This document shows positions 2,731 through 63,659 of a stretch of 64,000 nucleotides of DNA, piece after piece. The notes below the pieces were generated by a model. The model ran no database searches and was not told the DNA's origin. It saw nothing but the letters and a program-made list of their open reading frames with translations. Position 1 is the first letter of the stretch; each line of letters opens with the position of its first letter. The translations under genes were made by a program, and so were the position numbers. The DNA is taken from NCBI GenBank assembly GCA_035221665.1, contig CM069141.1:16120001-16184000 (forward strand). Direction: 5' to 3'. The DNA is from Okamejei kenojei. Its lineage: Eukaryota.

Positions 2731-2997
2731 CGCTAACTGACCTTTATAAGTAGCTGCATAATCGCTGGAAGATCTTGAGTTCAGTTCCCTGGGTCTGCTG
2801 TGTAATCTTATCACATCTGGGATATAATTGCATGACATGTGGCCTCCAGTACCCTGGACCCGAGACCAGATGAAACCATGGACTTTTGATAGAGAAACAT
2901 TGGGAGCAGTAAAACAAATTTGTTCAGGACCTTCAGGGGAAGCACACACTCTGGAAAACAGGAACGTCGTTAATTGGAATTTTGAAAAACCAATGAT

Positions 2998-3087
2998 GGA
3001 CATAAACTGGTGTAGTAACTCAGCAGGTCGGACAACATCTCTGGAGAAAAAGGATGGGTGATGTTTTGGTTCGGGTCCCTCCTTCAA
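2998..3087 (-). mobile_element. Decayed Penelope-like 3' end with degenerate hammerhead
   Basis: Similar to the reverse complement of 17255-17346. Confidence 0.75.
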
Positions 3088-4080: not shown

Positions 4081-4203
4081 GATAGACACAAAATGCCGGA
4101 CTAACTAGCGGGTTACGCAACATCGCTGGAGAAAAAGAAAAGGTGACGTTTCGGGTCAAGACCTTTTCAGTCTTAAGAAGAATCTTGACACAAAACGTCA
4201 CCT
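4081..4203. mobile_element. Penelope-derived inverted (head-to-head) hammerhead pair, decayed
   Basis: AGGTGACGTTTCGGGTCAAGACC...TCTTGACACAAAACGTCACCT inverted repeat. Confidence 0.75.
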
Positions 4204-4265
4204 GCAGGTATGCATCTAATTCTCCTTCAACTGTTGCTCCAGTTCATATAGAGGTAGGGATGCTT

Positions 4266-7045: not shown

Positions 7046-7604
7046 TAAAAATATAAAACCCAAAAAAATTGAAGAAAAAAGATAATTGTTTTATTTACTT
7101 GCTTTTTGTAAACAAAAAGGTTTTCAAACCAAAATAGAGGCAACAACACTTTTAAACCAAAGGAGAACCTGATTTTCTCTAGATTGTTAAAGAGCCGGCA
7201 GTGGCGATAATTACGTGAGTCTGTTGTGAATGATGAGAGTTTCATGTCAGTTGTGTTAATTAATGTATATACTTAAACAATAAGCTGGTCTTTCCACCGA
7301 GGATGTTTCGTCCTTGTGGAATACAACTGAAGCCAATTAAGCTTTGTCAAGCAACTGCAGAAAAATAATTGGTCAGAAAATTAACAGTGTTTGCCAAGAG
7401 AAAAACATAATTTATTTTTTATTACTGAAAATGATATTTTTATGCATCTGATGTATATGTGTTTTTGCAAAAATAATTTCACTGTGCAGTTGCACGTGTG
7501 ACAAATAAAGCACCGTAGAATTGCCATTCTTTCTCTCTGCATCTGCATCGTTCTGTGGACCAAAGAGCCTGTTTCTGTGCTGTGCTGTTCTTTGGTCACC
7601 TTGT

Positions 7605-8734: not shown

Positions 8735-10461
8735 ATGGGAGAATCTAGGATGAGAGATCATAGCATCAGAATTATCAGCTTCAGGATGTTCGTTTAGGAA
8801 GGAGGTGAGGGGCAATTGCTTTAGTCAGAGGATGGTGAACCTGTGGAATTCATTGCCGCAGAAGGCTGTGGAGGCCGTCAGTGGATATTTTCAAGGCAGA
8901 GAAAGATAGATTCTTGATTAGTACAGGTGTTTGGGGATATGGGGCAGGCATGTGCCGTCAGTGTAGGCAAGGTAGGCACTGCCTACCCTGACTAAAATTA
9001 TAACATAGTAATTACTAAATATAAATAGTAAAGGCATGGGAGAATTATGCCTATGTAAGAGACATATGCCTATGTAGGTAGGCATAATTCTCCGTACCTT
9101 TCATCCGCAGCGCTTGTAACACGGGAAGGTCTGTGCAGCCCACGTGCCGTCAGCGCTGCTTCAAGCGTCAATTTCAATCGGGGCTGAAGGCAGCAGAAAT
9201 TCTGCCTTTGCAGCACTGAGCATGCTCAGCAGTCTACTGCGCATGCGCAGCGCAAGTTTCTTGGCGGGTTTTCCAAATATGGTTTGTCGTGTACCAATGA
9301 TGTGGTAAGTACATTTCTTGGTGATGATTTTAACTACCATATTTCCCGGGGTGTGGGGGTGGGGGGAGAGCTCCTTTCCAAGTGTTTGGGGAGTCTGGCC
9401 CGGGGTAAAGTTGCGGGGAGGGCACAAATGTTATGAAGGAGGGGATTGGGATAATGCCACTTGCGACGCTCCTTGCACGGAGGCGTGGAATGCCACCGCA
9501 TTGAGGCCGGGGGGGGGGGGGGGGGGGGGGGGAGAGAAGTAGCTCGGGTGGCTGAGCAGCCGCCGGGCCGGACAGCGGAACCAGCCGCCACCTTAGCTCC
9601 TTCTGCCGGTTCCCACTCAGCTCTCCGTCTAAAAACCTCTCTCCTGCCGCTCGCTGGCCTCACTCATGTCCTTAAATTCCGACAGCGGGATTGAGGTTAC
9701 TCGGCTGTGGGAATTTAAGGATTTGCAGGAAGCCGCTGACATGAGCGAAGTCGGCGAACGGCAGGTGACAGGTGTTCCGACGGAGAGCAGTGCCAGAGGT
9801 GAGCGGGCCGGCAGAAGGCGCTGAAGTGGCGGCCAGTTCTGCTGTCGGGTACCGGCGGCCGCTCGCAGCTCCCCGAGCTGCTTCTATCCCCAGCTACAGT
9901 GCATGGCTTCGCGCCCGGAGTGCTGTGGTAGCGGTGAGTGAGTTACTGGCAGTATCCCCGACCTCCTCCTTCTCAACACTCCTGCCCTCCCCACAATTTT
10001 ACCCCTGGCACAGACTCTCCACACGCTGTGAAAGGAACTGTTCCCCCAATTGGTCCCTTGAACAAGTGTTGTCATTCAATAAGATGACAACTGATTCAAC
10101 TATTCCCTGCACTCCCATTATTCCCACCATCTCCACCTGCCATCACACTTCACCCCCCCCCCCTCCCACCCATTCAGTAATTCAGAATAAAGGAGACTAG
10201 GAAGCCTTGGGCAAATTGAATTGTCACTGTTTTTATTTATTTATTTTTTTAACGGAGAGAACAATATGCGCATGCGCGGTTTAATTTTTTTTAAGCCGAC
10301 TGAGTGCCTACCCTGAGTAATTACTCACGGCACGTGCCTGATATGGGGCGAAGGTAGGAGAATGGGGTTAAGAGGGAAAGATTGATCAACCATGATTGAA
10401 TGGCAGAGTAGACTTGATAGGCCGAATGGCCTAATTCTGCTCCTATCACTTATGAACATGA
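8735..10461 (+). mobile_element. CR1 3' fragment split by a hAT-like element (parts 8735-8944 and 10349-10461)
   Basis: CR1 3' end GGGATATGGGG|CGAAGGTAGGAGAATGG is continuous across the insertion. Confidence 0.85.
8945..10340. mobile_element. Non-autonomous hAT-like DNA transposon, copy 1
   Basis: 14-bp TIR CAGGCA(T/C)GTGCCGT (13/14 match); perfect 8-bp TSD ATATGGGG at 8937-8944 and 10341-10348; no transposase ORF. Confidence 0.92.
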
Positions 10462-13092: not shown

Positions 13093-13384
13093 GTTTAGCT
13101 TAGTTTAGAGGTGCAGCGCTGAAACAGTCCCTTCGGCCCACCAAGTCCGCACCAACCTGCGATCCCCACACATTAACACTACTACGGACAATTATACATT
13201 TACACCAATTGACCTACAAACGTATACGTCTTTGGAATGTGGGAGGAAACCGAAGATCTCGGAGAAAACCCACGCAAGTCACGGGAGAACGTACAAACTC
13301 TGTACAGTCAGCACCCATAGTCAGGATCGAACCTGGGACTCTGGCTCTGCAAGGCAGCAGCTCTACCTCTGCGCCACCTTGCCG
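13093..13384 (-). mobile_element. HE1-like V-SINE, full length
   Basis: A box and B box, V core, (TAAAC)n tail. Confidence 0.92.
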
Positions 13385-13521
13385 CTCAATGTGTGGTAGG
13401 GAATCAGGAAGGTCACCAGCCTTGAGTGACTGACTGACATTGCTCTGGCAGCTGTGTGTAGAGCTTTTATCATGTGCACAGAGGCCACGATAGAGATTCC
13501 AGTGCACAGACTGCATTGAGG

Positions 13522-13879
13522 GTTGCACAGCGCGCTGGAGCTGCTGCATCACCGCACCAGAAACCCGGGCTCAATCCTGACTATGGGTGCAGCCTGTACA
13601 GAGTTTGTACGTTCTCCCTGTAACTATGTGGGTTTTTCCTACAATTAACCTACAAACCTGCATGTCTTTGGAATGCGGGTGGGTTTTTCTCCGGGGGCTC
13701 CGGTTTTCTCCCACATTCCAAAGACGTGCAGGTTTGTAGGTTAATTGGCTTCTGTCAATTGCCCCGAGCATGTGGGTGCAAAACTGTGATAACTGAGAAC
13801 GAATGTGAATGGGTGATCGATAGTCCGCATGGACTCAGTGGGCCGAAGGATCTGTTTCTGTGCTGTATCTCTTTAAACA
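13522..13879 (+). mobile_element. HE1-like V-SINE with internal inverted duplication
   Basis: Head GGCTCAATCC, core and tail; 13642-13679 is an inverted copy of 13710-13747. Confidence 0.88.
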
Positions 13880-15542
13880 AGTACATCACCAGGTTTTTGT
13901 GATGACAATCAAAGCACAGTATTCCACACCTCAGAATTTTTAGCCTGTATTTTTTTCAGTCAGCTTTCTTCATTCCAATTCATTTTGAGCTTCACATGAC
14001 TGTCTCTCCTTTGCTGGTTAAGATATTTTCCACAGATCCCACTCAAATGCTCATTGTCCCTCTATTTTTTCCCCTAACTTCTCAGCCAGGATAAAGGTGT
14101 ACATGGAACTCCTTTGATTCATATTTGAATACTTAGTAATGGTTCACTTACATTAAAACCAACCAACTATTCTTCTCCCTTAAGGTATGTGTTTAAATAA
14201 TCCCCTGTTATTCCCAATTGTGGCTATCCCCAGCATAATTGATATGGAATGAGAAAAGCATAAACTGTCGGAATGTGCACGCTTGCGTTGACTTACAAGC
14301 GCATGACATTGACAAAGCAAGAAATCACTTTATTTTAAAATGTTGCACTTAAACATATCAAATTCTTTCTGTGCAGAATAAAAGGATTAAGCCTCCAATA
14401 ATGCAACAGTGAACAAGTATGTCATTGCTATTCAGTTGTATTCTTAGAATTATAATGAAAATGATACTATTCAGAAATGAAGTGGCAATGCAAGTTCCAA
14501 GTAAGTCTCTTCAGATCTAATAAGCAAATAAGGTGTGAATGAGAAGATGCAATGGATCTAGTTAGGTGGGAAATCCACATTTAAACCCAAAATATAACAG
14601 ATTGAGTTTCAGATCAACATTGATAGGAGCATTACCAGTAAATCTAGCACGTTACACTCAATCGGATGTTTGCATTTTGTACGATATTTAATACTGAGTG
14701 ACCTGTACTTTCCAATCCATATTGTAGTAGGGATATATTGCACATAACCTTTATTTTTATAATGTTCCCATTTCTATGCAACCATAAATCTTTTGCTACG
14801 ATGGTAAAATGAATATGTATCACCTCAAGACCTGCTGATGGAGAAATAACTATTATTTCTCAGGAAGGATTTAATAATTCCAGGACTATAAATTTGTTTT
14901 AATACTGCACGGCTGCAAAAGGGCACATTTGACATTTAATTCTGAAATTAAACTTTGTGTCAAGGAAATCATTTGCAGAAGATTTTTTTCGACCCAGTTA
15001 ATATTTGTGCAGCATGAGCTCATTAATGATAACTGGTAAAAAATATTTGTACATGAATGCAGGATGCATTTAATTTATAATTGTACTAAGATTGGAATAT
15101 TAATGTATTTGCAACCTATCACCAATGTGCAGGTGAAATTGATTTATTATCTTTAACTGAAAAATGTATTCCTACCTCTCTCATAATAATGATAGTTTCT
15201 TGCTTATTTTCCTGCAAGAAGTCACAAGATGTTTGTATTAATGCTTATGAAGGCGTATGGCATGGGCTTCTCTCAAATACTGAGTATTTGTTCAGTTTAC
15301 AGTTTAACCTTCTCTGTAGATTTCTGAAAATGTATTTTCCTTTACTATTGCCATGGCTATGATAAGTGACTGCTGCTTTATGTGTAATCGTGCACCTTTA
15401 ATGGGCGATGAGCAAAGTAGAATTAAAACGGTACCACCTTCCATATTTTGGTGTGTGACCTCACTGAGTAGAGTTATCAAAAAACAGATATTGAGGAAAC
15501 TGTGCCAATGTAATTTTTATCTGCCTTTTACCATAAGTAAAT

Positions 15543-15850
15543 GGGTGGCAAAGTGGCACAACGGTAGAGCTCGTGCCTTACAACACCAGAGACCCAGGGG
15601 CAATCCTGTCTATGGGTGTTTGTCTGTGTGCAGTTTGTACATTCTCACCGCAACCTGCGTGGGTTTACTCTGAGATGCGGGTTTCCTCGCCACACTCCAA
15701 AGACGTAGGTTAATTGGCTTGATATTAACGTAAAATTGACCGTCAGTGTGTGTAGGATAGTGTTAGTGTGTGGGGATCGCAGGTCGGTGCGGACTCGGTC
15801 GGCCGAAGGGCCTGTTTCCGCACTGTATCTGTAAACTAAACTAAAGTAAA
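15543..15850 (+). mobile_element. HE1-like V-SINE
   Basis: GTGGCACAACGGTAGAG head; GGCCGAAGGGCCTGTTTCC...TAAACTAAACTAAA tail. Confidence 0.9.
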
Positions 15851-15910
15851 TGATTTGCACGCACGGGCCCCAGCTACGTTTGCCTCTTTGTCGGGTACGT
15901 CGAACAATCC

Positions 15911-17016
15911 TTGTTCTCGGCGTACCAGGGCCCCATCCCCGACCTCTACCTCCGTTACATCGACGACTGCTTTGGTGTCACCTCCTGCACCCACACACAA
16001 CTGACTGACTTCATCCGTTTCACCACCAACTTCCATCCGGCACTCAAATACACCTGGACCATTTCCGACACTTCCCTACCATTCCTAGACCTCACCATCT
16101 CCATTGCAGGTGATACGCTCCTGACCGACATCCACTACAAACCAACTGACTCCCACAGCTACCAGGACTACTCTTCCTCCCACCCTGCTTCCTGTAAGGA
16201 CTCCATCCCCTATTCCCAATTCCTCCATCTACGCCGCATCTGCTCCCAGGATGAGGTGTTCCCCACCAGGTCATCACAAATGTCCTCATTCTTCAGAGAA
16301 CGGGGATTCCCCTCTCCCACTATAGATGAGGCTCGCACCAGGGTCTCCTCCATACCCCGCAACACTGCCCTCTCTCCCCATTCCCCCACTCGCAACAAAG
16401 GCAGAGTCCCCCTGGTCCTCACCTTTCACCCCACCAGCCGGCAAATACAACACATAGTCCTCCGCCAGTTTCACCACCTCCAACGTGACCCCTCCACTCG
16501 CCACATCTTCCCATCTCCCCCCCTGTCTGCCTTCCGCAAAGACCGCTCCCTCCGCAACTCCCTTGTCAATTCTTCCCTTCCCTCCCGCTCTACCCCTTCC
16601 CCGGGCACTTTCCCTTGCAACCGCAAGAAATGCTACACTTGTCCCTTCACCTCCCCTCTCCACTCCTTTCAAGGACCCAAGCAGTCCTGCCAGGTCCGAC
16701 AGAGGTTCACCTGCACCTCCTCCAACCTAATCTACTGCATCCGCTGCTCCAGATGCCAGATGATCTATATCGGTGAGACCAAGCGGAGGCTTGGCGATCA
16801 TTTTGCCGAACACCTCCGCTCGGTCCGCATTAACCAACTCGACCTCCCGGTGGCTCAGCACCAACTCCCCCTCCCATTCCGTATCCGACCTCTCGGTCCT
16901 GGGCCTCCTCCACGGCCAGAGTGAGCAACACCGCAAGTTGGAGGAACAACACCTCATATTCCGCATGGGGAGTCTGCATCCTCTGGGCTTGAACATTGAA
17001 TTTTCTCAATTCTGTT
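15911..17016 (+). pseudogene. Penelope-like RT/GIY-YIG ORF remnant
   Basis: 337-aa ORF; frameshift near 16862 (compare 53520); continues in another frame as ...EEQHLIFRMGSLHPLGLNIEFSQFC*. Confidence 0.92.
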
Positions 17017-17251
17017 AACCCTTGCTGTCTCCTCCCCTTCCCACCTCTCCCTCAGCCCTCAGGGCCTGGCATTCCCTCTCTCTCTATCTCTCTCCCCCAC
17101 CCTAGTCGCACTAGCTTCTCATTTTCACACTACAAACAGCTTACAATGGCTTGTTCCCTTTATCATCGATACTTTTTTGCATATCTTTCACTCATTGTTC
17201 TTTATCTCTCCACATCACCGTCTATATCTCTCGTTTCCCTGATCCCTGACC

Positions 17252-17285
17252 AGTCTGAAGAAGGGTCTCGACCCGAAACGTCGCC
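17252..17285 (+). ncRNA. Minimal type-I hammerhead ribozyme motif
   Basis: CTGAAGA A GGGTC TC GACCC GAAAC GTC; predicted cleavage after 17282; weak stem I. Confidence 0.75.
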
Positions 17286-18287
17286 TATCTCTTTCGCTCC
17301 TTAGATGCTGCTGCACCCGCTGAGTTTCTCCAGCCTTTTGTGTACCCTGACTTGCTGATTTGCTGACGGTTTTCATCTTGAATGCTTCAAACAATAGCTT
17401 AAACATTTAATATATGCTGTGACATTTCCACAAAGGTGCTTCACTGTTTTTTTTCCAAGGCGAGAACTGAAGGTTGGGCTTTCTTCAAGTAAGACTAATT
17501 CTTATGAATCACAAGCATCAATCTGTATGAAGGAATATAACCAGAGCTGAATATTATTAACCATCCCTGGCCACATAATTAAAGTCTAACAGGTGCAGCC
17601 AGCAGATATGGCTACCTTGAACAGATCCTTGAAAGCTTCATTGTCCTGGATTTTTATGAGCATTTTCCATTATTATTTGCAATTGGGTTCACTTAAAACC
17701 TTGCATTTCTCTTCTTTGAAGAGACTTATGACTAGCTAACTCACACATTAACATGTCTGCTGTGGCTGCCAAAGGTTTTATTTTTCCTCCTCTGCAATTT
17801 AACCTGGAGGCTGGTGTAGAAATGCCCTTCCCCACCAACAAATGTAAATTTAAATGTAATGTGTTGTGCATTATTTTCTGCATTGCACGAAAACGCTGCA
17901 TTTTTCTCCCTGTTGTGCCATTAAACAAAATCCAAATAAGAAACACCGCCAAATGACTTTTAGACAAAGTAACCACATTTCTCAGTGCTCTTAATTACTT
18001 CCTGGCCATAATATTGCAACAGTGTTTAGATCATTAACATGAAATGATTGCACCACATTACCAGTGACATTTCAAGTCCTGTTGCACCTATTCAAACACT
18101 CCATTGAATATCCAGCATTACTCACCCGAGATAATTGAACACTTCATTGCTGCAAAAAGCTTTTTTTTAAATTTCAAGATGAGCTCCAAGTTTTGCGGAG
18201 GAGTCGTGAGCATGTTTTTCATTGCTCACTAAATTCCAAAGAAATGTGCAGATTGGTTTGGGAACAGCCCCATCCAAGTTCCACTGC

Positions 18288-21055: not shown

Positions 21056-21091
21056 AGGTCTGAAGAAGGGTCTCGACCCGAAACGTCGCCT
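21056..21091 (+). ncRNA. Minimal type-I hammerhead motif
   Basis: AGGT CTGAAGA A GGGTCTCGACCC GAAACGTC GCCT; 4-bp stem I including one G-U pair. Confidence 0.75.
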
Positions 21092-21152
21092 ATCTCCTTT
21101 GCTCCTTAAATGCTGCTGCACCCGCTAAGATTCTCCAGCCTTTTGTGTACCG
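21063..21152 (+). mobile_element. ~90-bp Penelope-like insertion (ribozyme plus tail only)
   Basis: Near-identical to 17258-17346; TSD-like 14-mers at 21049-21062 and 21153-21166 (12/14). Confidence 0.85.
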
Positions 21153-24805: not shown

Positions 24806-25011
24806 TTGATAGATATGCTTAAAGGAACATGTCCTATTGTAAGCAAAGAGGACAAAACGTATCCTTTTCATCGTCTCTCCCAAACAGCCCGTGGTTCCTA
24901 TGGCTTCCCCAGCATCTATAGGCCGAGACCCCATTTTATTATTATTGCTATTGTTACTATCACTATCACTGCTGGGTCCTATTGCTCCACCTCCTGGCAT
25001 GGGCTCATTAA

Positions 25012-25240
25012 GGGCCTGTCCCACTTGGCGACTTTTTTCGGTGACTGACGTATCAGGGTCGCCAAAAGATTTTGAACATTTCAAAATCCAGCGGCGACAA
25101 AAAAATGTTGCGACACTGGAGGAAGCATCGCGCATCAATACGTCATCGCGCCGCATCACGCCACGACTTTTTCAGTGACCTGATACGTCAGTCAATGATG
25201 CCGACAGACTCCGAAAAAAATCACCAAGTTGGACAGGCCC
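25012..25240. mobile_element. MITE (PIF/Harbinger- or Kolobok-like)
   Basis: TIR GGGCCTGTCC(C/A)ACTTGG extending to ~30 bp; flanked by TTAA on both sides. Confidence 0.88.
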
Positions 25241-25885
25241 TTAACACTGACGCTGTTACCCTTCCCAAAGTTGTAACCACACCACTTCTCCTGACCCCTC
25301 TTCTCATCCTCCCCCCCCCCGCCCCCTTCTCCCTGAACACTACTTCCACCCCCTCACCCCCACTGCCCTCCTCAGGCCATGCCCAAACCCATCCCCAACC
25401 CCTGTTGAGTTATCACCTCCTCCCCCCCCACCCACACCCTCAGACGCAATGCAGAACGTCAGATCTCAATAGAGGTTTTACCTTTGTACCCCTGCATCCA
25501 TAGCTCCAAGGATTCCGAGCCCACCATGATGTCAATCAGGCTCTTCTTCCTTCGCCTCCAGGCCTATTTCTCTGGCTAGGAAGGCATTCTATCTCCTTGT
25601 CTGCCAGTGACGGCTCCTTCTCCCATCTCCAACGTTCTTCCCCCTCGTGGATTTTCCCTGCTGAACTTCTCACCTCTCTTGATTTTTTCATCAACTGCTG
25701 CGGCAACGTCAGCCATCTTGAATTCTCATCTCTCCTTACCCACTCCAATCTCTTTCCCTCCGAATGCACAGCTCTCTGCTCACTCAGTACCAATCCCATT
25801 ATTCTAATCAAGCATTCCAGGAAGGGAGGTGCCATTATAGTCAAATAGTCTGACCTCTACCATGCTGAGGCCAGGCATCAGCTTA

Positions 25886-26433: not shown

Positions 26434-26778
26434 TCCCTGGTGGAATTAAACTGGGTGAAAAAAAAGGTCTTGCTTTCCACTATGCCCTTAAATTCACTTG
26501 GAGTATTGCTGACACCACCCTCCCCTTTCTCGATCCCTCTGCCTCAAATGCCTGTTGTCCACAGCAAACCCACTGACTTCCGAAGCCACGTTGTCTACAC
26601 CTCCTCGCACCCTGCTTCATGCCAGGACACCATTTCTTACTCTCAGTTTCCCATTCTCCCTCGCTGCGTTGCAGGGTCGGCCTGGCCAAGCAAAGTTGTC
26701 AGTGCCCTCCATCGCTGCTCCGCCGCTCCGTGCTGCTGCAGGCTGCATCCGATCCACAAGCTAGTCTCTTGGAGCGGC

Positions 26779-27130
26779 GGTACACAAAAGGCTGGAGAAA
26801 CTCAGCGGGTGCAGCAGCATCTAAGGAGCGAAGGAGATAGGCGACGTTTCGGGTCGAGACCCTTCTTCAGACTGGTCAGGGATCAGGGAAACGAGAGATA
26901 TAGACGGTGATGTGGAGAGATAAAGAACAATGAATGAAAGATATGCAAAAAAGTATCAATGATAAAGGGAACAAGCCATTGTAAGCTGTTTGTAGTGTGA
27001 AAATGAGAAGCTAGTGCGAAGGGGGGGGGGGAGAGAGAGAGAGAGAGAGGGAATGCCGGGGCCCGAGGGCTGAGGGAGAGGTGGGAAGGGGAGGAGACAG
27101 CAAGGGTTAACAAAATTGAGAAAATTCAAT
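26779..27130 (-). mobile_element. Penelope-like 3' UTR insertion, same young subfamily as 15859-17346
   Basis: Highly similar to the reverse complement of 16997-17346; TSD-like CTCTTGGAG(C/A)GGC at 26766-26778 and 27221-27233. Confidence 0.92.
26840..26873 (-). ncRNA. Minimal type-I hammerhead motif
   Basis: Identical to 17252-17285; predicted cleavage at 26843. Confidence 0.75.
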
Positions 27131-27304
27131 GGGTCGATGTGCCCGGAATGAGGTGTCGGTGGAGAGGCCCTGCAGCAGCCTGGGGCTCAATTAGATCAGG
27201 TGCCGCTCCAATCCTGCTTCCTCTTGGAGAGGCACCTGATCTAATTGTGCCCCAGGCTGCTGCAGGGCCTCTCCACCGACACCTCATTCCGGGCACGTCA
27301 ACCC
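27131..27304. repeat. 81-bp-arm inverted repeat with 12-nt loop
   Basis: 27131-27211 vs 27224-27304, 77/81 match. Confidence 0.95.
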
Positions 27305-27862: not shown

Positions 27863-28023
27863 TGATAGACACAAAGCGCTGGAGTAGCTCAGCGGGACAG
27901 GCAGCATCACTGGAGAGATTAGGAATGGGTGACATTTTGGGTCAAGATCCTTCTTCAGAGTCTGTTACTCCAGCATTTTGTGTCAATCTTCGGTGTAAAC
28001 CAGCATCTGCAGTTCCTTGCGAC
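27863..28023. mobile_element. Penelope-derived inverted mini-element with internal deletion
   Basis: Minus arm with decayed hammerhead plus plus-strand long tail; flanks ACATCTGAACTTG / ACACCTGAACGTG. Confidence 0.75.
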
Positions 28024-28185: not shown

Positions 28186-28278
28186 GTCTGAAGAAGGATC
28201 TCGACCCGAAAGGTCACCTATCCATGTTCTCCACAGATGCTGCCTGACCTGTTGAGTTACTCCAGCACTTTGTGTCCT
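28186..28278 (+). mobile_element. Penelope-like 3' end with mutated hammerhead
   Basis: CTGAAGAAGGATCTCGACCCGAAAGGTCACC. Confidence 0.8.
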
Positions 28279-33587: not shown

Positions 33588-33685
33588 AGATAGACACAAA
33601 AAGCTGGAGTAACTCAGCGGGACAGGCAGCATCTCTGGATAGAAGGAATAGGTGATGTTTTGGGTCGAGACTCTTTTACAGACTG
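33588..33685 (-). mobile_element. Decayed Penelope-like 3' end
   Basis: GATAGACACAAAAAGCTGGAGTAACTCAGCGGG...GGGTCGAGAC. Confidence 0.8.
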
Positions 33686-35939: not shown

Positions 35940-36470
35940 GTGGATTGGTAGACAAGCTCAGTCCGCCTGTACCTACCTGATCTCCCGGTTGCCAAACACT
36001 CTAATTCCCCTTCCCATTCCCACACTGACCGTTCTGTCCTAGGCCTCCTCCATTGTCAGAGTGAGGCCAAACGCAAATTGGAGGAACAGCATCTCACATT
36101 TCGCTGGAGCAGCCCAGTGGTATGAATATTGGTTTCTCTAACTTCATATAACCCCGCAATTCCTCTCTCTCCATCCCTTCCCCATCCAAGTCATACCAGC
36201 TTCAAAGTCGTCTTGTTGAGTCTCTGTCTAAACTCGTTCTCAGCTAACAAACAGCTAACAAATGGCCTGTTTCCTTTATCATGGTTACTTTTTTGCATAT
36301 CTTACATACATTTGTTACATATCCCTCTACATCACTGTCTTACATCTCTCATTTCCCTTTCCCCTGACTCTCAGTCTCATGAAAGGTTTCAACCCAAAAC
36401 ATCACCTATTCCTTTTCTCCAGGGATGTTGTCCGACCCGCAGAGTTACCTCGGCTTTTTGTGTCTATCTT
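35940..36470 (+). mobile_element. Old Penelope-like 3' fragment (GIY-YIG end, UTR, decayed hammerhead)
   Basis: CGCAAATTGGAGGAACAGCATCTC (RKLEEQHL). Confidence 0.85.
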
Positions 36471-37364: not shown

Positions 37365-37975
37365 ACAGTACAACACAGTGCTTCAGCCATTAATGTCTGC
37401 CAAACATGATGCCAAGTTAAACTAATCACCACTGCCTACACATGATCTGTATCATTCCTTTTCCTGCATTTCCATGTACCTATCTAAAGACCTCAAATGC
37501 CACTATCGTACCTGCCTCCACTCTCCCCTAGCAGCATGTTTCAGGCACCTACCACCTTCTGCGTTTAAAAAATAGTGCCCTGTGCATCTCCTCTGAACTT
37601 TCGTTCTCTCTAATACCCTCTAATATCCAGAAGATTAAGATGATGTCTTGGTTGTTTACATGCACACGCACACGCACCCCTATCACAAACAGAAGTGTGT
37701 AAAAAACTATGAGTAAGCCAATTCTTAAACTGAACAACCAAGTCACCATCTTAATCTTATGGGTCACCTTACCAGGAGATAACTTATCAAAATCCAAGTA
37801 GACAACGTCCACTGCCCTACCCTCATCAATCATCTTCATCACTTCCTCAAAAAGGTTAATCAAGTTCAAAGGTCATAACCTGACATGGACTAAGATATGC
37901 TCACTGCCCACAATTAGTCTTTTATCTTCCAAATGTGAGTAAATCCCATCCAAAGAATCCTCTCAAATACCTTCC
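37365..37975 (-). mobile_element. Old CR1 fragments
   Basis: NLINLFEEVMKMIDEGRAVDVVYLDF plus a 3' tail fragment. Confidence 0.75.
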
Positions 37976-39068: not shown

Positions 39069-40607
39069 CAGGCACGTGCCGTGAATATACACTCAAGGTA
39101 GGCAGTCAGTCGGCTTTTAAAAAAAATCTTAAACCGCGCATGCGCAGATTGTTCTCTCCCTAAAAATAAAAAATAAAAATAAGTAACAATTCCACATGCC
39201 CAAGGCTTCCAAATCTCCTTCATTTTTTTAATTACTGAATAGGTGGGGGATGGAGGATGAAGGCAGATGGAGAGATGGTGGGAATGACGGGATGACGGGA
39301 GTTCCTTTCACAGCGTGTGGAGAGGTTGTGCCAGGGGTAAAGTTGCGGGGAGGGCAGGTGTGGGGTCGGGGATTATATCAGTAACTCACTCACTCACCGC
39401 TGCCGCAGTGCTCTGGACACGGACAGCGGAACTGGCCACCACTTCCGGGGAGGGAAGCAGCTCGGGTGACTGTGGTGGGGGGGGGGGGGGGGTAGCTTCT
39501 TTTACAGCGTTTGGGGAGTCTGGCCCGGGGTAAAGTTGTGGGGAGGACAGGAGCGTTGTGAAGGAGGGGATCGGGGATCAGGCCAGTAACCCATTTGCGA
39601 CGATCCGGGCATGGAGCCACCGCATTGTGGCCAGGGGAGTGAATTAGCTCGGGTGGATGCAAATGGCTGCCGGGTCCCGACAGCTGAACCGGCCGCCACT
39701 TCAGCGCCTTCTGCCGGCCCGCTCATCTCTGGCAATGCTCTCCGACTGAACATCTCTCACCTGCCCCTCGCCGGCTTCGCTCATGTCAGCCGCTTCCTGC
39801 AAATCCTTAAATTCCCACAGCTGAGTAACCTCAATTGGTCCCTTGATCGTGCTGTCGGAGTTTAAAGATTTGCGTGAAGCGGCTGACATGAGCGAGGCCG
39901 GCGAGCGGCAGGAGAGGTTTTCAGACTGAGAGCACTGCCAGAGGTGAGCGGGGCCCGGCAGAAGACACTGTCCGGTCCTGGCGGCCACTCACAGCCACCC
40001 GAGCTAAGTCACTCCCCAGCCACAATGCGGTGGCTCCGTGCCCGGAGCGTCGCAAGTTGGTTACTGGCCTAATCCCCGATCCTCTCCTTCACAACGCTCC
40101 TGCCCGCCCTCCAACTTTACCCCGGCCAGACTCCCCAAACGCTGTGAAAGGAGCTCTTCCCACCCCCCCGCCCCCCATATATAGCACCAAGAAATGTACT
40201 TACCACACCATTGGTACACAAACTCCATTCTTCTCTCTTTGTTTCCTAAGATACTCTTAAAATAATGACAATCCATATTTGAAAAACCCGCCAAGGAGCT
40301 TGTGATGCGTATGCGCAGTAGGCTGCTGCACATGCGCAGTATTGCAAAGGCAGAATTTCAGCTGCCTTCAGCCCCGCTTGTCATTGATGGTTGAAGCAGC
40401 GCCGATGGCACGTGGCCTGCACAGACCTTCGCGTGTTGCAAGCGCTGCGGTTGAAAGGCGCGGAGAATTATGCCTACCTAAGAGATCGATCTCTTAGAGA
40501 GGCATAATTCTCCCATGCCTTTACTATTTATATTTAACAATTACCATTTCATAATTTTAGTCAGGGCAGGCAGTGCCTACCTTGCCTACCCTGACGGCAC
40601 GTGCCTG
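39069..40607. mobile_element. Non-autonomous hAT-like DNA transposon, copy 2, inverted relative to copy 1
   Basis: Perfect 14-bp TIR CAGGCACGTGCCGT; homologous to 8945-10340; no matching TSD. Confidence 0.9.
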
Positions 40608-40677: not shown

Positions 40678-41746
40678 GTATGTTGTGAGTATGTGTGTAT
40701 ATATATATATGCACTGAGCTTATCTTTTCTCTCTCATTTGTCATATCGTACTATGTTTATGTATTCTGTTGTGCTGCAGCAAGTAAGAATTTCATTGTTC
40801 TACATGGGACATATGAGAATAAAACACTCTTGACTCTCTAGACTCTCGCTTCACCATACTCTCCTCTGTACACTTGCTATCTTCCCTCTCTACTCCTGGT
40901 CCTGATGCAGGGCTTTGACACAAAACGCCAACCATTCCTTTCCACCCACTGAGTCCCTCCAACAGATTGTTTGTTGCTTTTAAACCAACATTAGTTGTAA
41001 AAAAATCATGTACTGATACCTTTGATTTCAACCAAAAAGTTAGCATTTTATACATGATTTTAAAAAATACAGAAATTAAGATGGTATGACTGAATCATTT
41101 GTGATGTGTGATTATCATGCAAATAACTTTTAGTGTAGTTATTTTCTGTAAATCTATATCATGATTGAATAAGATGATTTCTATGAAGAGCTTCACACTG
41201 GACACATTGGCAAACGCAATAGCAGTGCTTTTTTTTGTGACAGTATGAGCCAGTACGTCTGCAGAATAAAACACACAATAGTATAATAGTTTATTGCAAT
41301 CTGAGCAACATGTTAACCAAACAGGATTGTATCTTTCGTGTAGCAAAATGTTCACCAGGAATTTGTTGCAACTAATTCCTAATCAACTCAACAAAGGAAT
41401 AACTTCACAGGAAGTGCATCTTTACATTGTACTTCCAATGACACTATTTCAGTCGAGTGTGAAAAACAAATTCCTGAATGCAGCTTCTCGAGAAAGCGAG
41501 AGAGGCTGTTAAATCTAACAGCATTATTCTTTGTGAATTGTCCACCTACATTGTTATTATGGCTCTTCAGTGCAATTTCCAGAAATGTTTCAACAGTCAA
41601 TTATTTTTGGGCCCATTTATTGTGTTCAGTTCAATGGCCAAGCCTTTCACTACATTTCTAAGCATGAATCTTCACTTCCAGACATATCTATACATCCACT
41701 GAATCATTCAGGAGGATTTGTTATGTATTATATTAACAATGATTGC

Positions 41747-43765: not shown

Positions 43766-44042
43766 CATTCTTCAAGGCATACTTGCAGTATTCAGAAATC
43801 GTATAACTTCTAGGTGCAGCAGTATTCCAGTTCAGAAGTGAGGTGCAGTCTGTAAGTTTATGTTAAGCATTTATTTAAATCATGTAAGAGGTCAATGTTA
43901 CAGTTGTCAAAGTTGAAGTGGAGTGGAGAATGATATTAATGGGCATCAACCAGTGAATTGTTTGAGAAGCTTTGAACACATATTACATTCAGCATAAATC
44001 AAGTATCAGTGACTTTATAAAGAAGCTGTACTACACCCAGGA

Positions 44043-44600
44043 TCAATTTTACTTCGGAGTCACGTGAGTGACTTCGTGAAGACCCCGCGAGCACGTATGC
44101 GCGACCTTGGAATTGGCAAAATTGGCTGGCTCAGTCACCAAGCTCCTATTTCAAAAATCGGGGTTTATTATCCATCCAGACAAATCCAAGTTAAATGCCT
44201 TCCGGTGACTATGGATTTGGGATTCACGATTGACTCTGTTCATATGTCTGTCACCTTGCCAAAAAACAAAGCAACAGACTTGATAGAGGCATATAACAGC
44301 CTTGTTTGCGTCAGTAAACCATCTATTCGGCAAATAGCCAGGGTAATTGGGAAGCTCGTGGCTGCCTTTTTCCCAGCCACAATTTGGACCCTTACATTAC
44401 TAAAATCTACAAAGGGCCAAAACTACAGTACTCAAAACACCATGCTGGCCATTTTGACAGACCAGCCAAAGCAAATTGGAAATTACGATGGTGGATTAGC
44501 AATGTTCGACATTGCTCTAAATCCCATCACAGTCACAAACCCTTCGGTTGTGTTACAAACCAATACCACCTCCAGTTGTGGTGGTAGATGGAATACACAC
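44043..44600 (+). mobile_element. DIRS-like tyrosine-recombinase retrotransposon remnant (RT 3' part and RNase H start)
   Basis: GFIIHPDKS; LGFTIDSVHMSVTLPKNK..RQIARVIGKLVAAF; FGPLHY; LRWWISN; VVLQTN. Confidence 0.75.
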
Positions 44601-44605
44601 GACCT

Positions 44606-44915
44606 TACTTCAGGGTATCAATCATCAAAAGATGTTGGGAGCATCCACGGACTTGTGAGTTGGGTGAGAATGAGACTCAACAAGACAAATTTGAAGCTGA
44701 TATGACTTGGGTGGGGGAGGAATGGAGAGAGGGGGAATGCAGGGGTTACTTGAAGTTAGAGGAATCAATATTAATACCACTGGGTTGCAAGCTGCCCAAG
44801 CGAAATATGAGATGTTGTTCCTCCAATTTGCGTTTGACTTTCCTCTGACAATAGAGGAGGCCTCGGACAGAAAGGTCAACGTTGGAACGGGAATTAAAGT
44901 GTTTGGAAACCGGGA
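44606..44915 (-). mobile_element. Old Penelope-like GIY-YIG end fragment
   Basis: Reverse-complement homologue of 35990-36240. Confidence 0.8.
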
Positions 44916-45102
44916 GCTTGTTCCTTTGACCACAATAACGTTTAATAACTTTTTATTATGTATTTTTTTAAGTACTTCAAAAAGGACATTTATATCTCAG
45001 TATAAGCTGGAAAGATTCTGTGTATTTTTTTAAGTAATTAACATTTAATATCAGATTACGTGCAGATTAACCCTGGTTAAAAATACTTTCAGTTGTTGAG
45101 TG

Positions 45103-45317
45103 TAGACAAAAATGCTGGAGAAACTCAGCGGGTGAGGCAGTATCTATGGAGCGAAGGAATGGGTGACGTTTCGGGTGGAAACCCCTGTCCGAAGAAGGGT
45201 CTTGACCCGAAACATTACCTATTCCTTCGCTCCAAAGATACTGCCTCACCCGCTGAGTTTCTCCAGCATTTTAGTCCATCTTCGATTTTTCAAACATCGG
45301 CAGTTCTTTCTTAAACA
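45103..45317. mobile_element. 215-bp palindromic Penelope-derived mini-element with two inverted hammerhead remnants
   Basis: Perfect 15-bp TSD TTCAGTTGTTGAGTG at 45088-45102 and 45318-45332. Confidence 0.92.
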
Positions 45318-45424
45318 TTCAGTTGTTGAGTGCTATTTTTGTACTCATCAATAATTATTCTCAAAGTACTACTCTATTGCACAGATTCAGTTCAAATGTT
45401 ATGTATAGTGATGTGCAAATAAGA

Positions 45425-45672: not shown

Positions 45673-46815
45673 CATTAATATGAATTGATCTCATCTATAT
45701 CAAAAATAAAAACAGAAAATCCTGGAAGAACTCGGCCAGTCGAGCAGTATCTGTGGAAAGCGAAACTTAAGCTTAGGGAAAGAGACAAGCTGGTATCAGA
45801 AACATTTGGCAATAATTTTAATGCCAATGTATAACAAAACTATTATATCACTTGCAGCAAACAATAAGATATGATCCAGCTCTCAATGCGGGAATTGTGT
45901 TACATCTTTTATGTTTTTACCACGTAAAATCAGAAAGTAGGAGGATTTCAAGACACTTGCTTGGAGGTTTGCAAAGACAAAATAATGAGTTACTGGAATA
46001 ATTAACAAGCTTCTTTCAGGATGGTCATTCCACAAACTTTAGTCCTTCCTGGGAATATTTTGTTTTAGCCTTATTATCAAATCTGTATGTTAATAAATCT
46101 GTTTTTTTCTGGCATGATGCATTCTACAGACTTGCATATTTTGATCAGCCTATTAGATATGTGGGCCAATTTGGTGCTAATGTTTTCAGTGGAGGATTTT
46201 AAATAACTTACTCAAACATTTAGCCAAATGCTTTGCATATGATTAAGCTGATTTTAGTTAATTGGAAATCGGCGACCATGTATTAAAGATGAGGCCACTT
46301 TTACGATTAACTCTAATTTTTGGTCAACTCATTTACAGAATACGGAGTTCGTTAGTGATTAGTGTTACAGTAACTAATTTATTCAGCGCATCGCCATCCA
46401 TGCAGAAGATTTGTCAAAGGCAGATCTGAAGTTCAGCAAATATTTAACTTGGCGGTTTTGTGTCCTCATTAATTCAGGTACTGAAGTATGAATAAAGAGC
46501 ATGCTTTTAGCAGCTTTTGGGCAGTTAATCTAACAAGTTTACTTCACAGTGTAATAATCAGATTCAAGGTACTATGAATTTAATTTGAGTGGTTGGGTCA
46601 TTACTTCTGGAGAATTCGAATAAATTGTCGCTTTCCAGATATAGTTTCTGCGAATTCCAAATGTCTCGAACATTTAAGCCAATTGCTTGGCATGTGATTA
46701 AGCTGATTTTACTTAATTGGAAATCAGCGACCGTGCATTAATGTTGAGGCCACTTTTACTATTAACTCTCAATTCTGGTGAATTTATTTATGGAATACGA
46801 AGTCACGGTTAATTC

Positions 46816-53194: not shown

Positions 53195-53883
53195 TTTTCC
53201 GCAGAGACCAGCTCCCTCCATAACTCCCTGGTCAATTCGTCCCTTCCCACACACACCACCCCTCCCCATGCACTTTCCCTTGCAACCAGAGGAAATGCTA
53301 CACTTGTCGCTTTACCTCCCCCTTTGACTCCAAGGACCTAAGCAGTCTTTCCAGATGAGGCAGAGGTTCACCTGCACCTCTTCCAACCTCATCTATTGCA
53401 TCCGCTGCTCTAGGTGTCAACTGCTCTACATCAGTGAGACCAAGCGCAGGCTTGGCGATCGCTTCGCCCAACACCTCCGCACCGTTCGCATTAACCAACC
53501 TGATCTCCCGGTGGCTCAGCACTTCAACTCCCCCTCCCATTCCGAGTCCGACCTTTCTGTCCTGGGCCTCCTCCATGACCAGAGTGAGTTCCACCGCAAA
53601 TTGGAGGAGCAGCACCTCATATTTCGCTTGGGCAGTTAACACCCCAGCGGTATGAACATTGACTTCTCCAATTTCAGGAAGTCCTTGTTTTCTCCCTCCT
53701 TCCCCTCCCCTTCCCAGCTCTCCCACAGCCCACTATCTCCGCCTCTTCCTTTCTTCTTCCCCCCCCCCCCCCCCCCACCCCCACATCGGTCTGAAGAAGG
53801 GTCTGGACCCGAAACGTCACCTATTCCTTCGCTCCTTAGATGCTGCCTCACCCGTTGAGTTTCTCCAACATTTTTGTCTACCT
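53195..53883 (+). mobile_element. 5'-truncated Penelope-like element (GIY-YIG, 3' UTR, hammerhead)
   Basis: NLIYCIRCSRCQLLYISETKRRLGDRFAQH; 10-bp TSD TAGATAGATT at 53185-53194 and 53884-53893. Confidence 0.95.
53788..53821 (+). ncRNA. Minimal type-I hammerhead motif
   Basis: GGT CTGAAGA A GGGTC TG GACCC GAAACGTC ACC; stem I GGT:ACC. Confidence 0.78.
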
Positions 53884-54019
53884 TAGATAGATTCTTGATT
53901 AGTACAGGTGTCAGAGGTTCTGGGGAGAAGGCAGGAGAATGGGGTTAGAAGGGAGAGGTAGATCAGCCATGATTGAATGGCGGAGTAGACGTGATGGGCC
54001 GAACACTTATAATTTTATG

Positions 54020-54298
54020 ATCTCTGGAGAAAACAAATAGGTGACGTTTCGGGTCAGGACACTTCTCCAGCCTGAAGAAGCGTAGCAACCTGAAACAACA
54101 CCTATATTTTTTTTATCAGTGATGCTGCCTAACCCGCTGAGATACACCAGCATTTTGTGTATATCTTCAGTACAATATTAAGCAGATGCTGGTATACACC
54201 AAAGATAGACACAAAGTGCTGGAGTAACTCAACGGGTCAGGCAGCATCTCTGGAGAAAAAGGATGGGTGATGTTTCGGGTCGGGACCCTTCTTCAGAC
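54020..54298. mobile_element. Cluster of three decayed Penelope 3'-end/hammerhead units (minus, plus, minus)
   Basis: Cores near 54040-54070, 54072-54100 and 54267-54296. Confidence 0.78.
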
Positions 54299-54378
54299 AT
54301 ATTCAATGTCTGTGTTGACTCCATAATCATTGCTGCTATTTTATTGCATGCTTGAAATTTTGTACTGGGAACCCGATT

Positions 54379-57699: not shown

Positions 57700-59132
57700 A
57701 AGGTGCTTTGAGAGGTTGCTTATAGTGCATATCAACTCCTACCTCAACAAGAACCTCGACCCACTACAGTTTGCCTACTGTCACCACAGGTCACTGGCAT
57801 CTCACTGGCACTTCACTCCACTCTGGGCCACTTGGACAATAAAAACACTTATATCAGGCTGTTGTTTATAGACTACAGCTCAGCATTCAATGCCTTCATT
57901 CCCTCCAAACTGGTTACCAAGCTCACCAAGGAGCTGAGTCGCTGTGCATCCCTCTGCAATTGGATCCTCGACTTCCTCATCCACAGACACAGTCTGCTCG
58001 AATTGGCAGAAATACTTCTTCCTCATTAGCAATCAGTACGGGAGCACCTCAAGGCCGCGTGCTCAGCCCCCTGCTCTATTCACTCTATACTCATGACTGT
58101 GTAGCCGGACACAGTGCAAACTCCATCTTCAAGTTCGCCGACAACAACACCATTGTTGGATGACTTTCAGATGGTGATGAGTCGGAGAAGAGAAGTGAGA
58201 TCGATCGATTGACCAAATGATGCCAGCACAACAACCTGGCTCTCAATATCAGTAAAACCAATGAACTGATTGTGGGCTTTGGAAGAGGAAGGATGAGGAC
58301 CCACGATCCTGTTTATATCAACGGGACAACGGTGGAGAGGGTCAAAAAACGTCAAATTCCTGGGCGTGCATATTTCCAAAGATCTTTCTTGGACACAGCA
58401 CACTGATGCAATTATAAATAAAACGCATCAACATCTCTACTTCCTGAGAAGATTACAAAGATTCAGTATGTCAGAGAGGATTCTCATGAACTTCTACAGG
58501 TCTACAGTAGACAGCACATTGACTGGTTGCATCACGGCATGGTTCGGCAACTTGAACGCCCAGGAGCGAAAAAGACTGCAAACATTTGTGAACACTGCCC
58601 GGTCCATCACCGGCTCTGACCTCCCCACCGTCGAAGGGATTTATCGATCGTTGCCTCAAAAAGGCAGCCAACATAATCAGAGACCCACACCATCCTGGCT
58701 ACACATTCATTTCTCCCCTGCCATCGGGAAGAAGTTACAGGAGCCTGAAAACTGTAACATCCAAGTTCAGGAACAGCTTCTTTGCTTCTTCCATACAGCC
58801 ATCAGGCTATTAGAACAATCTCAAATAAGCGCTGAACTACAATAGACTATTATGATTATTATATATTACGNNNNNNNNNNNNNNNNNNNNNNNNNNNNNN
58901 NNNNNNNNNNNNNNNNNNNNNNNNNNNNNNNNNNNNNNNNNNNNNNNNNNNNNNNNNNNNNNNNNNNNNNNNNNNNNNNNNNNNNNNNNNNNNNNNNNNN
59001 NNNNNNNNNNNNNNNTTCTCATTTATTATATTGTTTACAGTGTACTATATTTACATATTCTGTTGTGCTGAAGCAAATAAGAATTTAATTGTTCTATCTG
59101 GAACATATGATAAAAAAACACGCTTGACTTGA
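57700..59132 (+). mobile_element. Rex1/Babar-like LINE (family B), spanning the assembly gap
   Basis: CFERL..LDPLQFAY; LFIDYSSAFN; GAPQGRVLSPLLYSLYTHDC; homologous to 38108-39060. Confidence 0.9.
58871..59015. other. Assembly gap (run of N)
   Basis: Ns within the Rex1 3' UTR, where the 38108 copy has TA/TG microsatellite. Confidence 0.99.
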
Positions 59133-59394: not shown

Positions 59395-59501
59395 AGGGGC
59401 TGTCCCACTGCGGCGACCTAATCCGTGAGTTAAGAAGACTATCTTCGACCTTCAAGCTCGAGGGCACTCTCCTGGAAAACCACGAGCTGGATCGACTGAG
59501 C

Positions 59502-59540
<39 letters not shown>

Positions 59541-59852
59541 GGTCAGCGAAGGAGATTGCCTATGGTTGTCCTCGACTGCCTGTAACTAAATAGCGACCCC
59601 ACTCCACTGCACTACGAGTTAAAAAGAACCATGCCAACCAAATTTTACTTGCGGAAAATTTTCCAACATGCTAAAAAGATGTCCGCGACCTAGTTGAGGC
59701 CGCGAGTATTCGGGAACTTCCCTCGAGCATCTAGGAGAGTTCCAGTGACCCATAGGACCTCCTAGGACCACGTGTCAACAATGCTGCGAGTTTGAGTCGT
59801 GGGCAAATTCGTCTAAACTTGCATATTAGCTCACCGCAGTGGGACAGCCCCT
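59395..59852. mobile_element. MITE (PIF/Harbinger-like) containing (CA)n
   Basis: 19-bp perfect TIR AGGGGCTGTCCCACTGCGG; flanks TTC / TTA. Confidence 0.88.
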
Positions 59853-62528: not shown

Positions 62529-62719
62529 GATAGGCACAAAATGTTCGCGTAATTCAGCGGGTCAGGCAGCATCTTTGGAAAAAATGGATGTGACGTTTCG
62601 GGTCTGGACCCTTCTTCAGACCCGGCCCGATCCATTTTCTCCAGAGATGCTGCTTGACCCGCCTAGTTACTCCAGCGTTTTGTGTCTATCTTTGGAATCT
62701 GCAGTTCCTTTTTATTACA
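62529..62719. mobile_element. Palindromic Penelope-derived mini-element; minus-arm hammerhead core intact (62592-62619)
   Basis: Minus strand CTGAAGAAGGGTCCAGACCCGAAACGTC; plus arm with long tail. Confidence 0.82.
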
Positions 62720-63659
62720 TTGGGTACATCAATGTTTTTCTATTGTGGCTTCTACTCTGGTGATCATGGTGATCTTGCTTTCCATCAGAGAATGAGAATG
62801 TTCTGCTAACTTACTGCCCGACTTGTTCAGAGGTTTAAAACTCCCACCCTTCAAATGTAATTGCATCATTGGATTCCTGTCAAAAATGTACAGTCTTGTA
62901 TAGTTTATATTTGTCTTATTCACAATGAAAGACTTTGTTAACAAACTGAAGCAAGCATTTTCTGCACAGGAGAGCAATGTAAAATATTACATTATCAATC
63001 AATATTATTAAATCAGCATGTCTCAATCAACAAACTCAGATGAACTATTTCCTACGCTGCTGCTAATCGTCACATATCTCAGGATATATGATCACAATTT
63101 GATTTTAAACCACAAAAGTATGTTCAAGTCACAGATAAACTGGTGGTTTGGGGAAATTGACAGCTTTGAAAATTTATCATTCTCAATTGATGCTACATTT
63201 AATATTCTAGCTTCCTTTATTGCTTATCCTCACCGCAGTATGAAGTTTATCTTGGTTGCTATGCAATGTTAACATTTTGCTGAACATGAAAGTTTTGGAT
63301 AAATTGCAATCCACGTGCCTGTTGGGATTACTCAGTGGAAATATGGTTGCAAAAGGGCTGCATTTGATGTCATCCTTCATAAAAACAACCTAAATAAGAA
63401 TGATATGTTGAATATTTGCATCTCTCCTCTGGAGTTAAGATCATACAAAAGAATTATATAAAATGGTTGATACTTAGCACAGTATCTGTCAAATGATTGT
63501 GCACAGAAGATTAATGTCCTCTGTAAAATTATTTTGTCTAGAAATTGGATATTTGCTTTTTTTAATAGGTGATAATCACCCCAAATACACTTTTACTTGA
63601 AATAAGTGGGCAGTGATGCTGCTGGTGGAGATGACTGCCTATTAGGACTGAGATCTATG

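Follow-up and report, generated by a model that had tools for sequence, protein, structure and literature searches.

Head-to-head Penelope-like terminal repeats within a single target-site duplication in Okamejei kenojei

The insertion at 45088-45332 of the window (the entire 64,000-nucleotide stretch of Okamejei kenojei contig CM069141.1 under analysis) is built from two pieces of the end of a known Penelope-type retrotransposon, set head to head, and it is most likely a by-product of the copying of Penelope-like elements (PLEs). As a feature it belongs to a kind already known, the head-to-head PLE insertion with no ORF. An exact 15-bp direct repeat on the + strand (45088-45102 at left, 45318-45332 at right) flanks a unit of 215 bp, just as the original prediction described, and this target-site duplication (TSD) scores above all 1500 of 1500 random flank pairs.

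The insertion and its source element

Positions within the arms are counted from the hammerhead cleavage site, +1 being 45217 on the + strand and 45164 on the - strand. The inverted arm (45103-45184, - strand) runs from -20 to +62, a short 3' end also used by solo copies, while the direct arm (45185-45278, + strand) runs from -32 to +62, carries subfamily-A bases and matches the ORF-linked terminal repeat at 53789-53888 at 87%. A 39-nt "tail" (+63 to +101; 45279-45317, + strand) extends one end only and aligns with the tails of seven other copies. The measured outer ends, +62/+63 for the inverted arm and +101 for the direct arm, agree with those predicted (near +63 and near +101). At the head-to-head junction (45184-45188), position -20 of the inverted arm meets -32/-33 of the direct arm with an overlap of 1-2 nt; the same letters read equally well as a junction centred on -29 minus 5 nt. 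The unit contains a hairpin (arms 45105-45184 and 45197-45276, 80 nt each and 90% complementary) that folds at -149.6 kcal/mol, with z at -18.7 and none of 200 shuffles equal to it. Selection on this hairpin is unsupported, as one change is common to both of its arms against 11 differences.

To judge from sequence, each arm derives from the terminal repeat (pLTR) of a PLE of Neptune/Nematis type, the repeat in which the hammerhead lies. The same pLTR stands downstream of the ORF at 15854-16924 and of the fragment at 53197-53731. The former is part of a 5'-truncated PLE (15854-17346, + strand) comprising the C-terminal part of the RT, a CX4CxxC linker, a GIY-YIG endonuclease region and a pLTR with an intact hammerhead motif (17255-17282); the latter is part of a second ORF-linked PLE 3' end (53197-53888, + strand), with an intact core at 53791-53818 and a pLTR that is the nearest relative of the insertion in the window. 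The proposed link to the Penelope enzyme is borne out by these matches to pLTRs attached to RT/GIY-YIG sequence. Of 2327 candidates compared with ORF 15854-16924, 649 are relatives at E 1e-20 or better; those that match best, at 60-68% identity, come from sharks and rays, and among the matches listed for this ORF many are annotated PF00078 (RT) or PF01541 (GIY-YIG). A direct Pfam scan of two ORFs, this one included, returned 0 families, and a PDB search returned two chance matches only (E about 0.9). The translation shows the CX4CxxC linker at residue 255 and a CxxC between the GIY and YIG boxes at residue 292. A CX2-5CxxC linker together with a GIY-YIG domain containing an internal CxxC is described as the mark of Neptune/Nematis PLEs (PMC8557442), and it is from these linker and CxxC motifs that the assignment is drawn, the RT core being mostly missing from the window copy. 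Three features of a derived insertion of an EN+ Penelope-like element are found: a pLTR linked to RT/GIY-YIG sequence, a minimal type I hammerhead (damaged in this insertion), and an inverted 5'-truncated copy with tail and TSD.

PLE insertions of this plan, in which the inverted pLTR is 5'-truncated, one end has a tail and a TSD is present, have been described before (PMC8557442, PMC3846280). Craig 2021 (PMC8557442) describes PLE insertions whose 5' end bears an inverted, 5'-truncated copy and which have a tail of 30-40 bp at one of their ends, a tail of that length being described in PMC11167929 as well, and Arkhipova 2013 (PMC3846280) describes inverted junctions with TSDs and junction palindromes. 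EN+ Neptune/Nematis PLEs in these accounts resemble the insertion in the head-to-head inverted copy, the one-end tail, the TSD, the small junction palindrome and the hammerhead in the pLTR; the insertion differs in having no ORF at all, and in a TSD of 15 bp as against 8-10 bp in the rotifer cases reported there. How PLEs make inverted pLTRs is stated in PMC8557442 to be still open. Literature searches found no title or opening of an abstract on pLTR-only palindromes of sharks or rays; Repbase or Dfam may already list the family.

The window is repeat-rich DNA of vertebrate type, and many of its ORFs are broken and LINE-like. Just left of the insertion lies a 230-aa stop-free frame (44013-44705), which we take to resemble a decayed DIRS-type RT/RNase H piece. 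A fragment of a PLE endonuclease region without pLTR (44672-44916, - strand; 82% to 35982-36224) ends 170 bp left of the insertion, outside the TSD. Elsewhere in the window, 25008-25244 and 59395-59852 have related terminal inverted repeats of 43-44 bp, MITE-like and with no relation to the pLTR; 39525-40125 is a nested 600-bp palindrome (arms of 112, 50 and 66 bp), which a GC-rich inverted set at 9398-10009 resembles; and 13205-13748 is an inverted pair of an abundant SINE-like repeat of about 300 bp, with another copy at 15541-15845. An assembly gap of 145 N occupies 58871-59015.

Head-to-head loci and the damaged hammerhead

A profile built from 13 arms of the window gives 29 matches, 28 of them with E below 1e-3 and making up 23 loci; the match at 37366 (E 0.24) was dropped, and the reversed window gives 0 matches. 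The pLTR arms total 2737 bp, or 4.3% of the window. Head-to-head pairs make up five of the loci; at another two, 7604 and 6648, 6-9 nt of a second arm survive. The original prediction saw the plan of the insertion at four other places, and all four do hold head-to-head pLTR arms, of subfamily B, but a significant TSD is found at only two. One of these (27866-28023) has an inverted arm from -29 to about +65 and a direct arm mostly deleted with its tail kept (TSD 9/10, p 0.014); the other (62530-62727) has an inverted arm with an intact core and a direct arm from about +5 plus the tail, and its 7/7 TSD (p 0.014) sets the end at 62727 instead of the 62719 first given. The remaining two, 4083-4204 and 54020-54170, are partial copies centred on -29 (at 4171 and 54071) with no significant TSD, and for 12 of 19 boundary sets the TSD search gave p above 0.05. 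The description of these loci as hairpins of about 80 bp at high density is overstated, with arms of at least 60 bp in only 2 of the 5 pairs.

At 21058-21151, 28186-28277, 33588-33685, 54184-54298 and 2996-3086 there are solo pLTR arms with their start at -27 to -32, immediately ahead of the core. Such solo arms of 90-130 bp, a SINE-like population, are possibly full-length copies of a short pLTR transcript. A tail-to-tail pLTR pair (54067-54299, a 59-bp inverted repeat) lies beside a head-to-head copy and 130 bp from the end of an ORF-linked PLE, a possible case of repeated insertion into its own kind. The divergent pLTR-like arm at 40902-40997, with stem II altered, is probably a third PLE subfamily. 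The commonness of solo arms, and the neighbours at 54067-54299, might suggest that the insertion at 45088 is simply two independent solo insertions side by side; a DNA-transposon MITE is the other reading of this sort. Both are highly improbable, given that a single 15-bp TSD bounds both arms, that the arms are of the same subfamily, and that the ends are asymmetric and pLTR-derived.

The direct arm carries a minimal type I hammerhead motif (45189-45216, + strand; presumed cleavage after 45216) that core scoring finds damaged and that the core pattern does not match. It has two lesions in the core, U4 to C, and G16.2 to A, which breaks a stem III pair. The inverted arm ends at -20, so that stem II, GAAA and the cleavage triplet are kept and the CUGAnGA half (the C3-A9 core) is missing. 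The term "double hammerhead" must therefore be withdrawn for this unit, whose two arms lie on opposite strands. Across the window an intact core occurs in 5 of 21 scored pLTR arms, none of them in the insertion and never two in one locus; the five core-pattern matches, as against 0.01 expected by chance, are all in pLTR arms. In Rfam the window as a whole gives 13 weak matches, none at the insertion and none to a hammerhead family, and an intact pLTR copy gives no hammerhead match at E up to 10. The minimal type I hammerheads of metazoan PLEs are known as thousands of dispersed truncated copies, and opposite-strand pairs 100-700 bp apart have already been reported (Cervera and de la Pena 2014, PMC4209133). 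The motif here is like those described in that paper in its core, the extra base before stem II, the lack of a stem III loop and the palindromic 15.2-16.2, and differs from them in a stem II of 4 bp and in the insertion's own broken cores.

The head-to-head order places an antisense arm ahead of the sense motif in transcripts of either strand. The cost of a ribozyme-compatible fold is 18.7 and 19.1 kcal/mol on the two strands of the insertion; of four isolated arms, three require 3.5-3.9 kcal/mol and one 7.9. In all six palindromic transcripts folded, stem II has a pairing probability of 0.0, and the cost is 5-25 kcal/mol. (The stem II probability is also low in isolated arms, 0.005-0.04, and it is the difference in cost that carries the point.) On these folding models, the antisense arm masks the ribozyme whichever strand is transcribed.

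These results bear on the suggestion that the unit is retrozyme-like, with two ribozymes excising a monomer that is circularised and re-inserted. Animal non-LTR retrozymes are described as head-to-tail tandem units with same-sense ribozymes and circular RNA (PMC7229834; bioRxiv 10.64898/2026.07.22.740005). Like the insertion they are short, non-coding, hammerhead-bearing, related to pLTRs and dependent on PLEs, and they are reported from a chondrichthyan (bioRxiv 10.64898/2026.07.22.740005); the presence of intact core motifs in the window is also in favor of this reading. Unlike them the insertion is head to head and has no working core. With its arms on opposite strands, only one sense motif would appear per transcript; the eight TRF rows of the window include no head-to-tail tandem array of the retrozyme kind, and no locus of the window has two complete same-sense hammerheads. 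Together with the missing core half and the predicted masking, this leaves a retrozyme origin with very little probability. An LTR retrozyme of the plant type (direct LTRs, type III hammerheads, 4-bp TSD) was rejected, the arms here being inverted, the motif type I and the TSD 15 bp.

Ancestry of the arms

A private variant in both arms had been taken as proof of one template. The variant, G>A, is indeed present in both arms and in none of 19 other aligned arms, but it is a single column, 11 of the 84 aligned columns distinguish the two arms, and simulations produce a parallel non-CpG change by chance in 4-10% of cases. Because of these differences and this chance rate, the shared variant suggests one source allele rather than one template molecule. 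Each arm is as near to the ORF-linked copy at 53819 (75/84 and 73/84) as to its partner (73/84). A more distant fragment (45716-45764), outside the alignment, has the same letters as the shared variant.

The arm tree draws on 21 arms and 84 columns from one window of old copies, and 10 of its 18 inner branches are unresolved. The insertion's arms group with the ORF-linked 53819 and 17283, plus 26842 and 21088 (support 96/92). Over five diagnostic columns the insertion has three subfamily-A bases in both arms and a fourth in one arm, the fifth being absent; the four other head-to-head loci have none of the five and fall outside this group. A single clade for the seven arms of the five head-to-head loci is rejected (p-AU 0.018, for a group chosen in the original prediction), as are clades joining the insertion with 27866 (0.003) or with 62530 (0.005) and, post hoc, a clade of the four subfamily-B loci (0.027). 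A clade made up of just the insertion's two arms is not recovered, but nor is it rejected (p-AU 0.32). Prokaryotic genomes, scanned twice for host-contaminant copies, gave 0 matches.

These trees bear on the view that the palindrome is itself a replicating non-autonomous family (a retro-MITE), in which read-through transcription would keep the tail single-stranded and the PLE protein would re-insert the whole hairpin. The recurrence of the plan, the -29 centre common to subfamily-B loci and the position of the tail outside the long stem all speak for it, and non-autonomous PLE derivatives and pLTR action in trans have been published (PMC8557442, PMC3846280). We hold it to be unlikely: one clade is rejected, three loci have different junctions, there is no evident route to a precise RNA 5' end at antisense +62, and the RT would have to get through a duplex of 80 bp. 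Non-monophyly would also result if each PLE subfamily had a palindrome family of its own. Of the two outcomes first offered, a family or recurrent by-products, the latter has fared better, since the loci do not form one clade and their breakpoints cluster at the 5' edge of the ribozyme. The proposed contrast of shared junctions with unique ones would not separate the two: 4 of 7 head-to-head junctions do share one centre, but a hot spot predicts sharing as well as a family does.

Breakpoints and the mode of insertion

Breakpoints were read by eye at the 22 loci whose 5' end could be made out (40902, unreadable, was excluded), using the longer-reaching arm of each pair. Twelve of the 22 break at -27 to -33, the 5' edge of the ribozyme; in six the arm extends beyond this on the upstream side, and in four it starts only downstream of the core. 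The 7-nt window was chosen after the breakpoints were seen, and the cluster has p at most 4e-6 when exponential truncation (mean 50-300 nt) is scored in its most favourable 7-nt window. The available text of published EN+ PLE accounts (PMC8557442, PMC3846280) contains no such sharp cluster of 5' ends. The ribozyme had been named as the fold-back point, which holds for its 5' edge but not for the cleavage site, where none of the 22 breakpoints (at +1) is found. As 5 of the 12 clustered breaks are in solo arms (one being 21058-21151, where the TSD is 8/9 at p 0.049), the stop point needs no palindrome. Of seven head-to-head junctions, four have their centre at -29, within a CAG-N-CTG, and those of the insertion, 27866 and 62530 are different; the middle base varies over the four loci (T, C, A, T), as is expected for a mismatch between annealed cDNA ends. 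The 3' ends fall into two groups, about +62 to +67 and about +100, and all three TSD-bounded head-to-head loci have one end near +62/65 and the other near +100. Eight tails fold at only -0.6 to -6.7 kcal/mol and show no conserved stem-loop.

The -30 site might mark the start of a transcript. An Inr-like motif is present at -33 in 4 of 6 long copies, and a TATA-like stretch lies about 29 nt upstream of it in the 17283 type. The motif is missing from the nearest relative, 53819, so a transcript start near -33 is weakly indicated. The site also reads as a splice acceptor, a possibility raised by the D. virilis intron, which is described as ending at helix I (PMC4209133); of the 6 long copies, 2 lack the AG.

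The evidence on the ends is thus as follows: one TSD surrounds both arms, both arms are pLTR 3' ends, the outer ends are the two 3' ends of solo copies (about +62 and +100), and the inner ends are at or near the 5' edge of the ribozyme. We consider it probable that the insertion is a recurrent by-product: short cDNAs, primed at both of the target nicks, become joined head to head. An RT-endonuclease of a Neptune/Nematis-type PLE would make the minimal ORF-less insertion in one event, dead on arrival. Its GIY-YIG domain would nick both strands 15 nt apart in AT-rich DNA. With uncleaved PLE RNA of a single source allele as template, each 3'-OH would then prime reverse transcription, starting at one or other of two internal initiation sites. 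The two cDNAs would stop near -30, probably at the 5' end of a pLTR-initiated transcript or else at a strong stop, and their 3' ends would be joined by microhomology, helped in most copies by the self-complement CAG-N-CTG (-32 to -26). The ribozyme would be a passenger, unable to fold inside the hairpin.

In L1 twin priming, a second cDNA is primed at a second target nick, and the resulting inversion lies within one TSD. There a single template is split and no part of it duplicated, whereas the insertion holds the same stretch twice. A closer precedent is the Anolis Poseidon element PAc, for which Frangieh 2024 (PMC11167929) shows in vitro that both strands of an AT-rich target are cut and extended, that the tail is bounded by two internal RT start sites, and that uncleaved RNA is used with no need for ribozyme cleavage. 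On the reading above the insertion is like PAc in the two start sites bounding the tail, the extension of both strands, the AT-rich target and the dispensable ribozyme cleavage, and the fit of all three TSD-bounded loci to the two-start-site pattern argues for two-nick priming. PAc belongs to a different clade, Poseidon, and head-to-head pLTR-only units are not derived in the accessible text of that paper (PMC11167929).

Counting against two-nick priming, Arkhipova 2013 prefers self-priming for inverted-pLTR junctions, reading the palindromes there as its trace (PMC3846280). Applied to the insertion, this would mean that a cDNA running from +101 to about -30 snaps back on CAG-N-CTG, copies itself and joins the second nick, which is still a by-product. 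The shared non-CpG variant, the junctions centred on the mini-palindrome and the very short second arms at 7604 and 6648 would suit such a fold-back, as would a snap-back of host flank at 27131-27304. Its stem would be only 2-3 bp, however, the CAG half is missing in the nearest relative, 53819, and nothing in it explains a copied arm that ends at about +62 in every TSD-bounded locus; we regard it as distinctly unlikely.

The host-flank case lies in a young 5'-truncated PLE (26779-27131 within 26766-27304; 96.6% to the 17283 copy). Inside its 12/13 TSD (26766-26778 and 27221-27233) there is also, at the PLE 5' junction, an inverted duplicate of 81 bp of the right host flank (77/81), together with about 9 nt of filler. 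This inverted flank is a product of snap-back synthesis at the 5' junction, and it follows that inversions arise at 5' junctions in this window, which supports inversion as a side effect. The same region gives the window's best spurious miRNA matches in Rfam.

The value of the insertion is mechanistic, in that fixed outer ends together with a hot spot for inner ends permit two-nick priming and self-priming to be told apart from genome data alone. By extrapolation from one window, such hairpins may be a notable source of dsRNA and a cause of false MITE or miRNA annotation. A more far-reaching and doubtful idea is that in this cartilaginous-fish lineage PLEs mass-produce pLTR-only hairpins by two-nick priming at their two RT start sites and that some of these have become self-propagating retro-MITEs, one set per PLE subfamily. 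If so, the hairpins would be recognised through their single-stranded tail, with the antisense arm silencing the ribozyme, and they would represent a class of palindromic non-autonomous retroelements that mimics DNA-transposon MITEs and seeds dsRNA.
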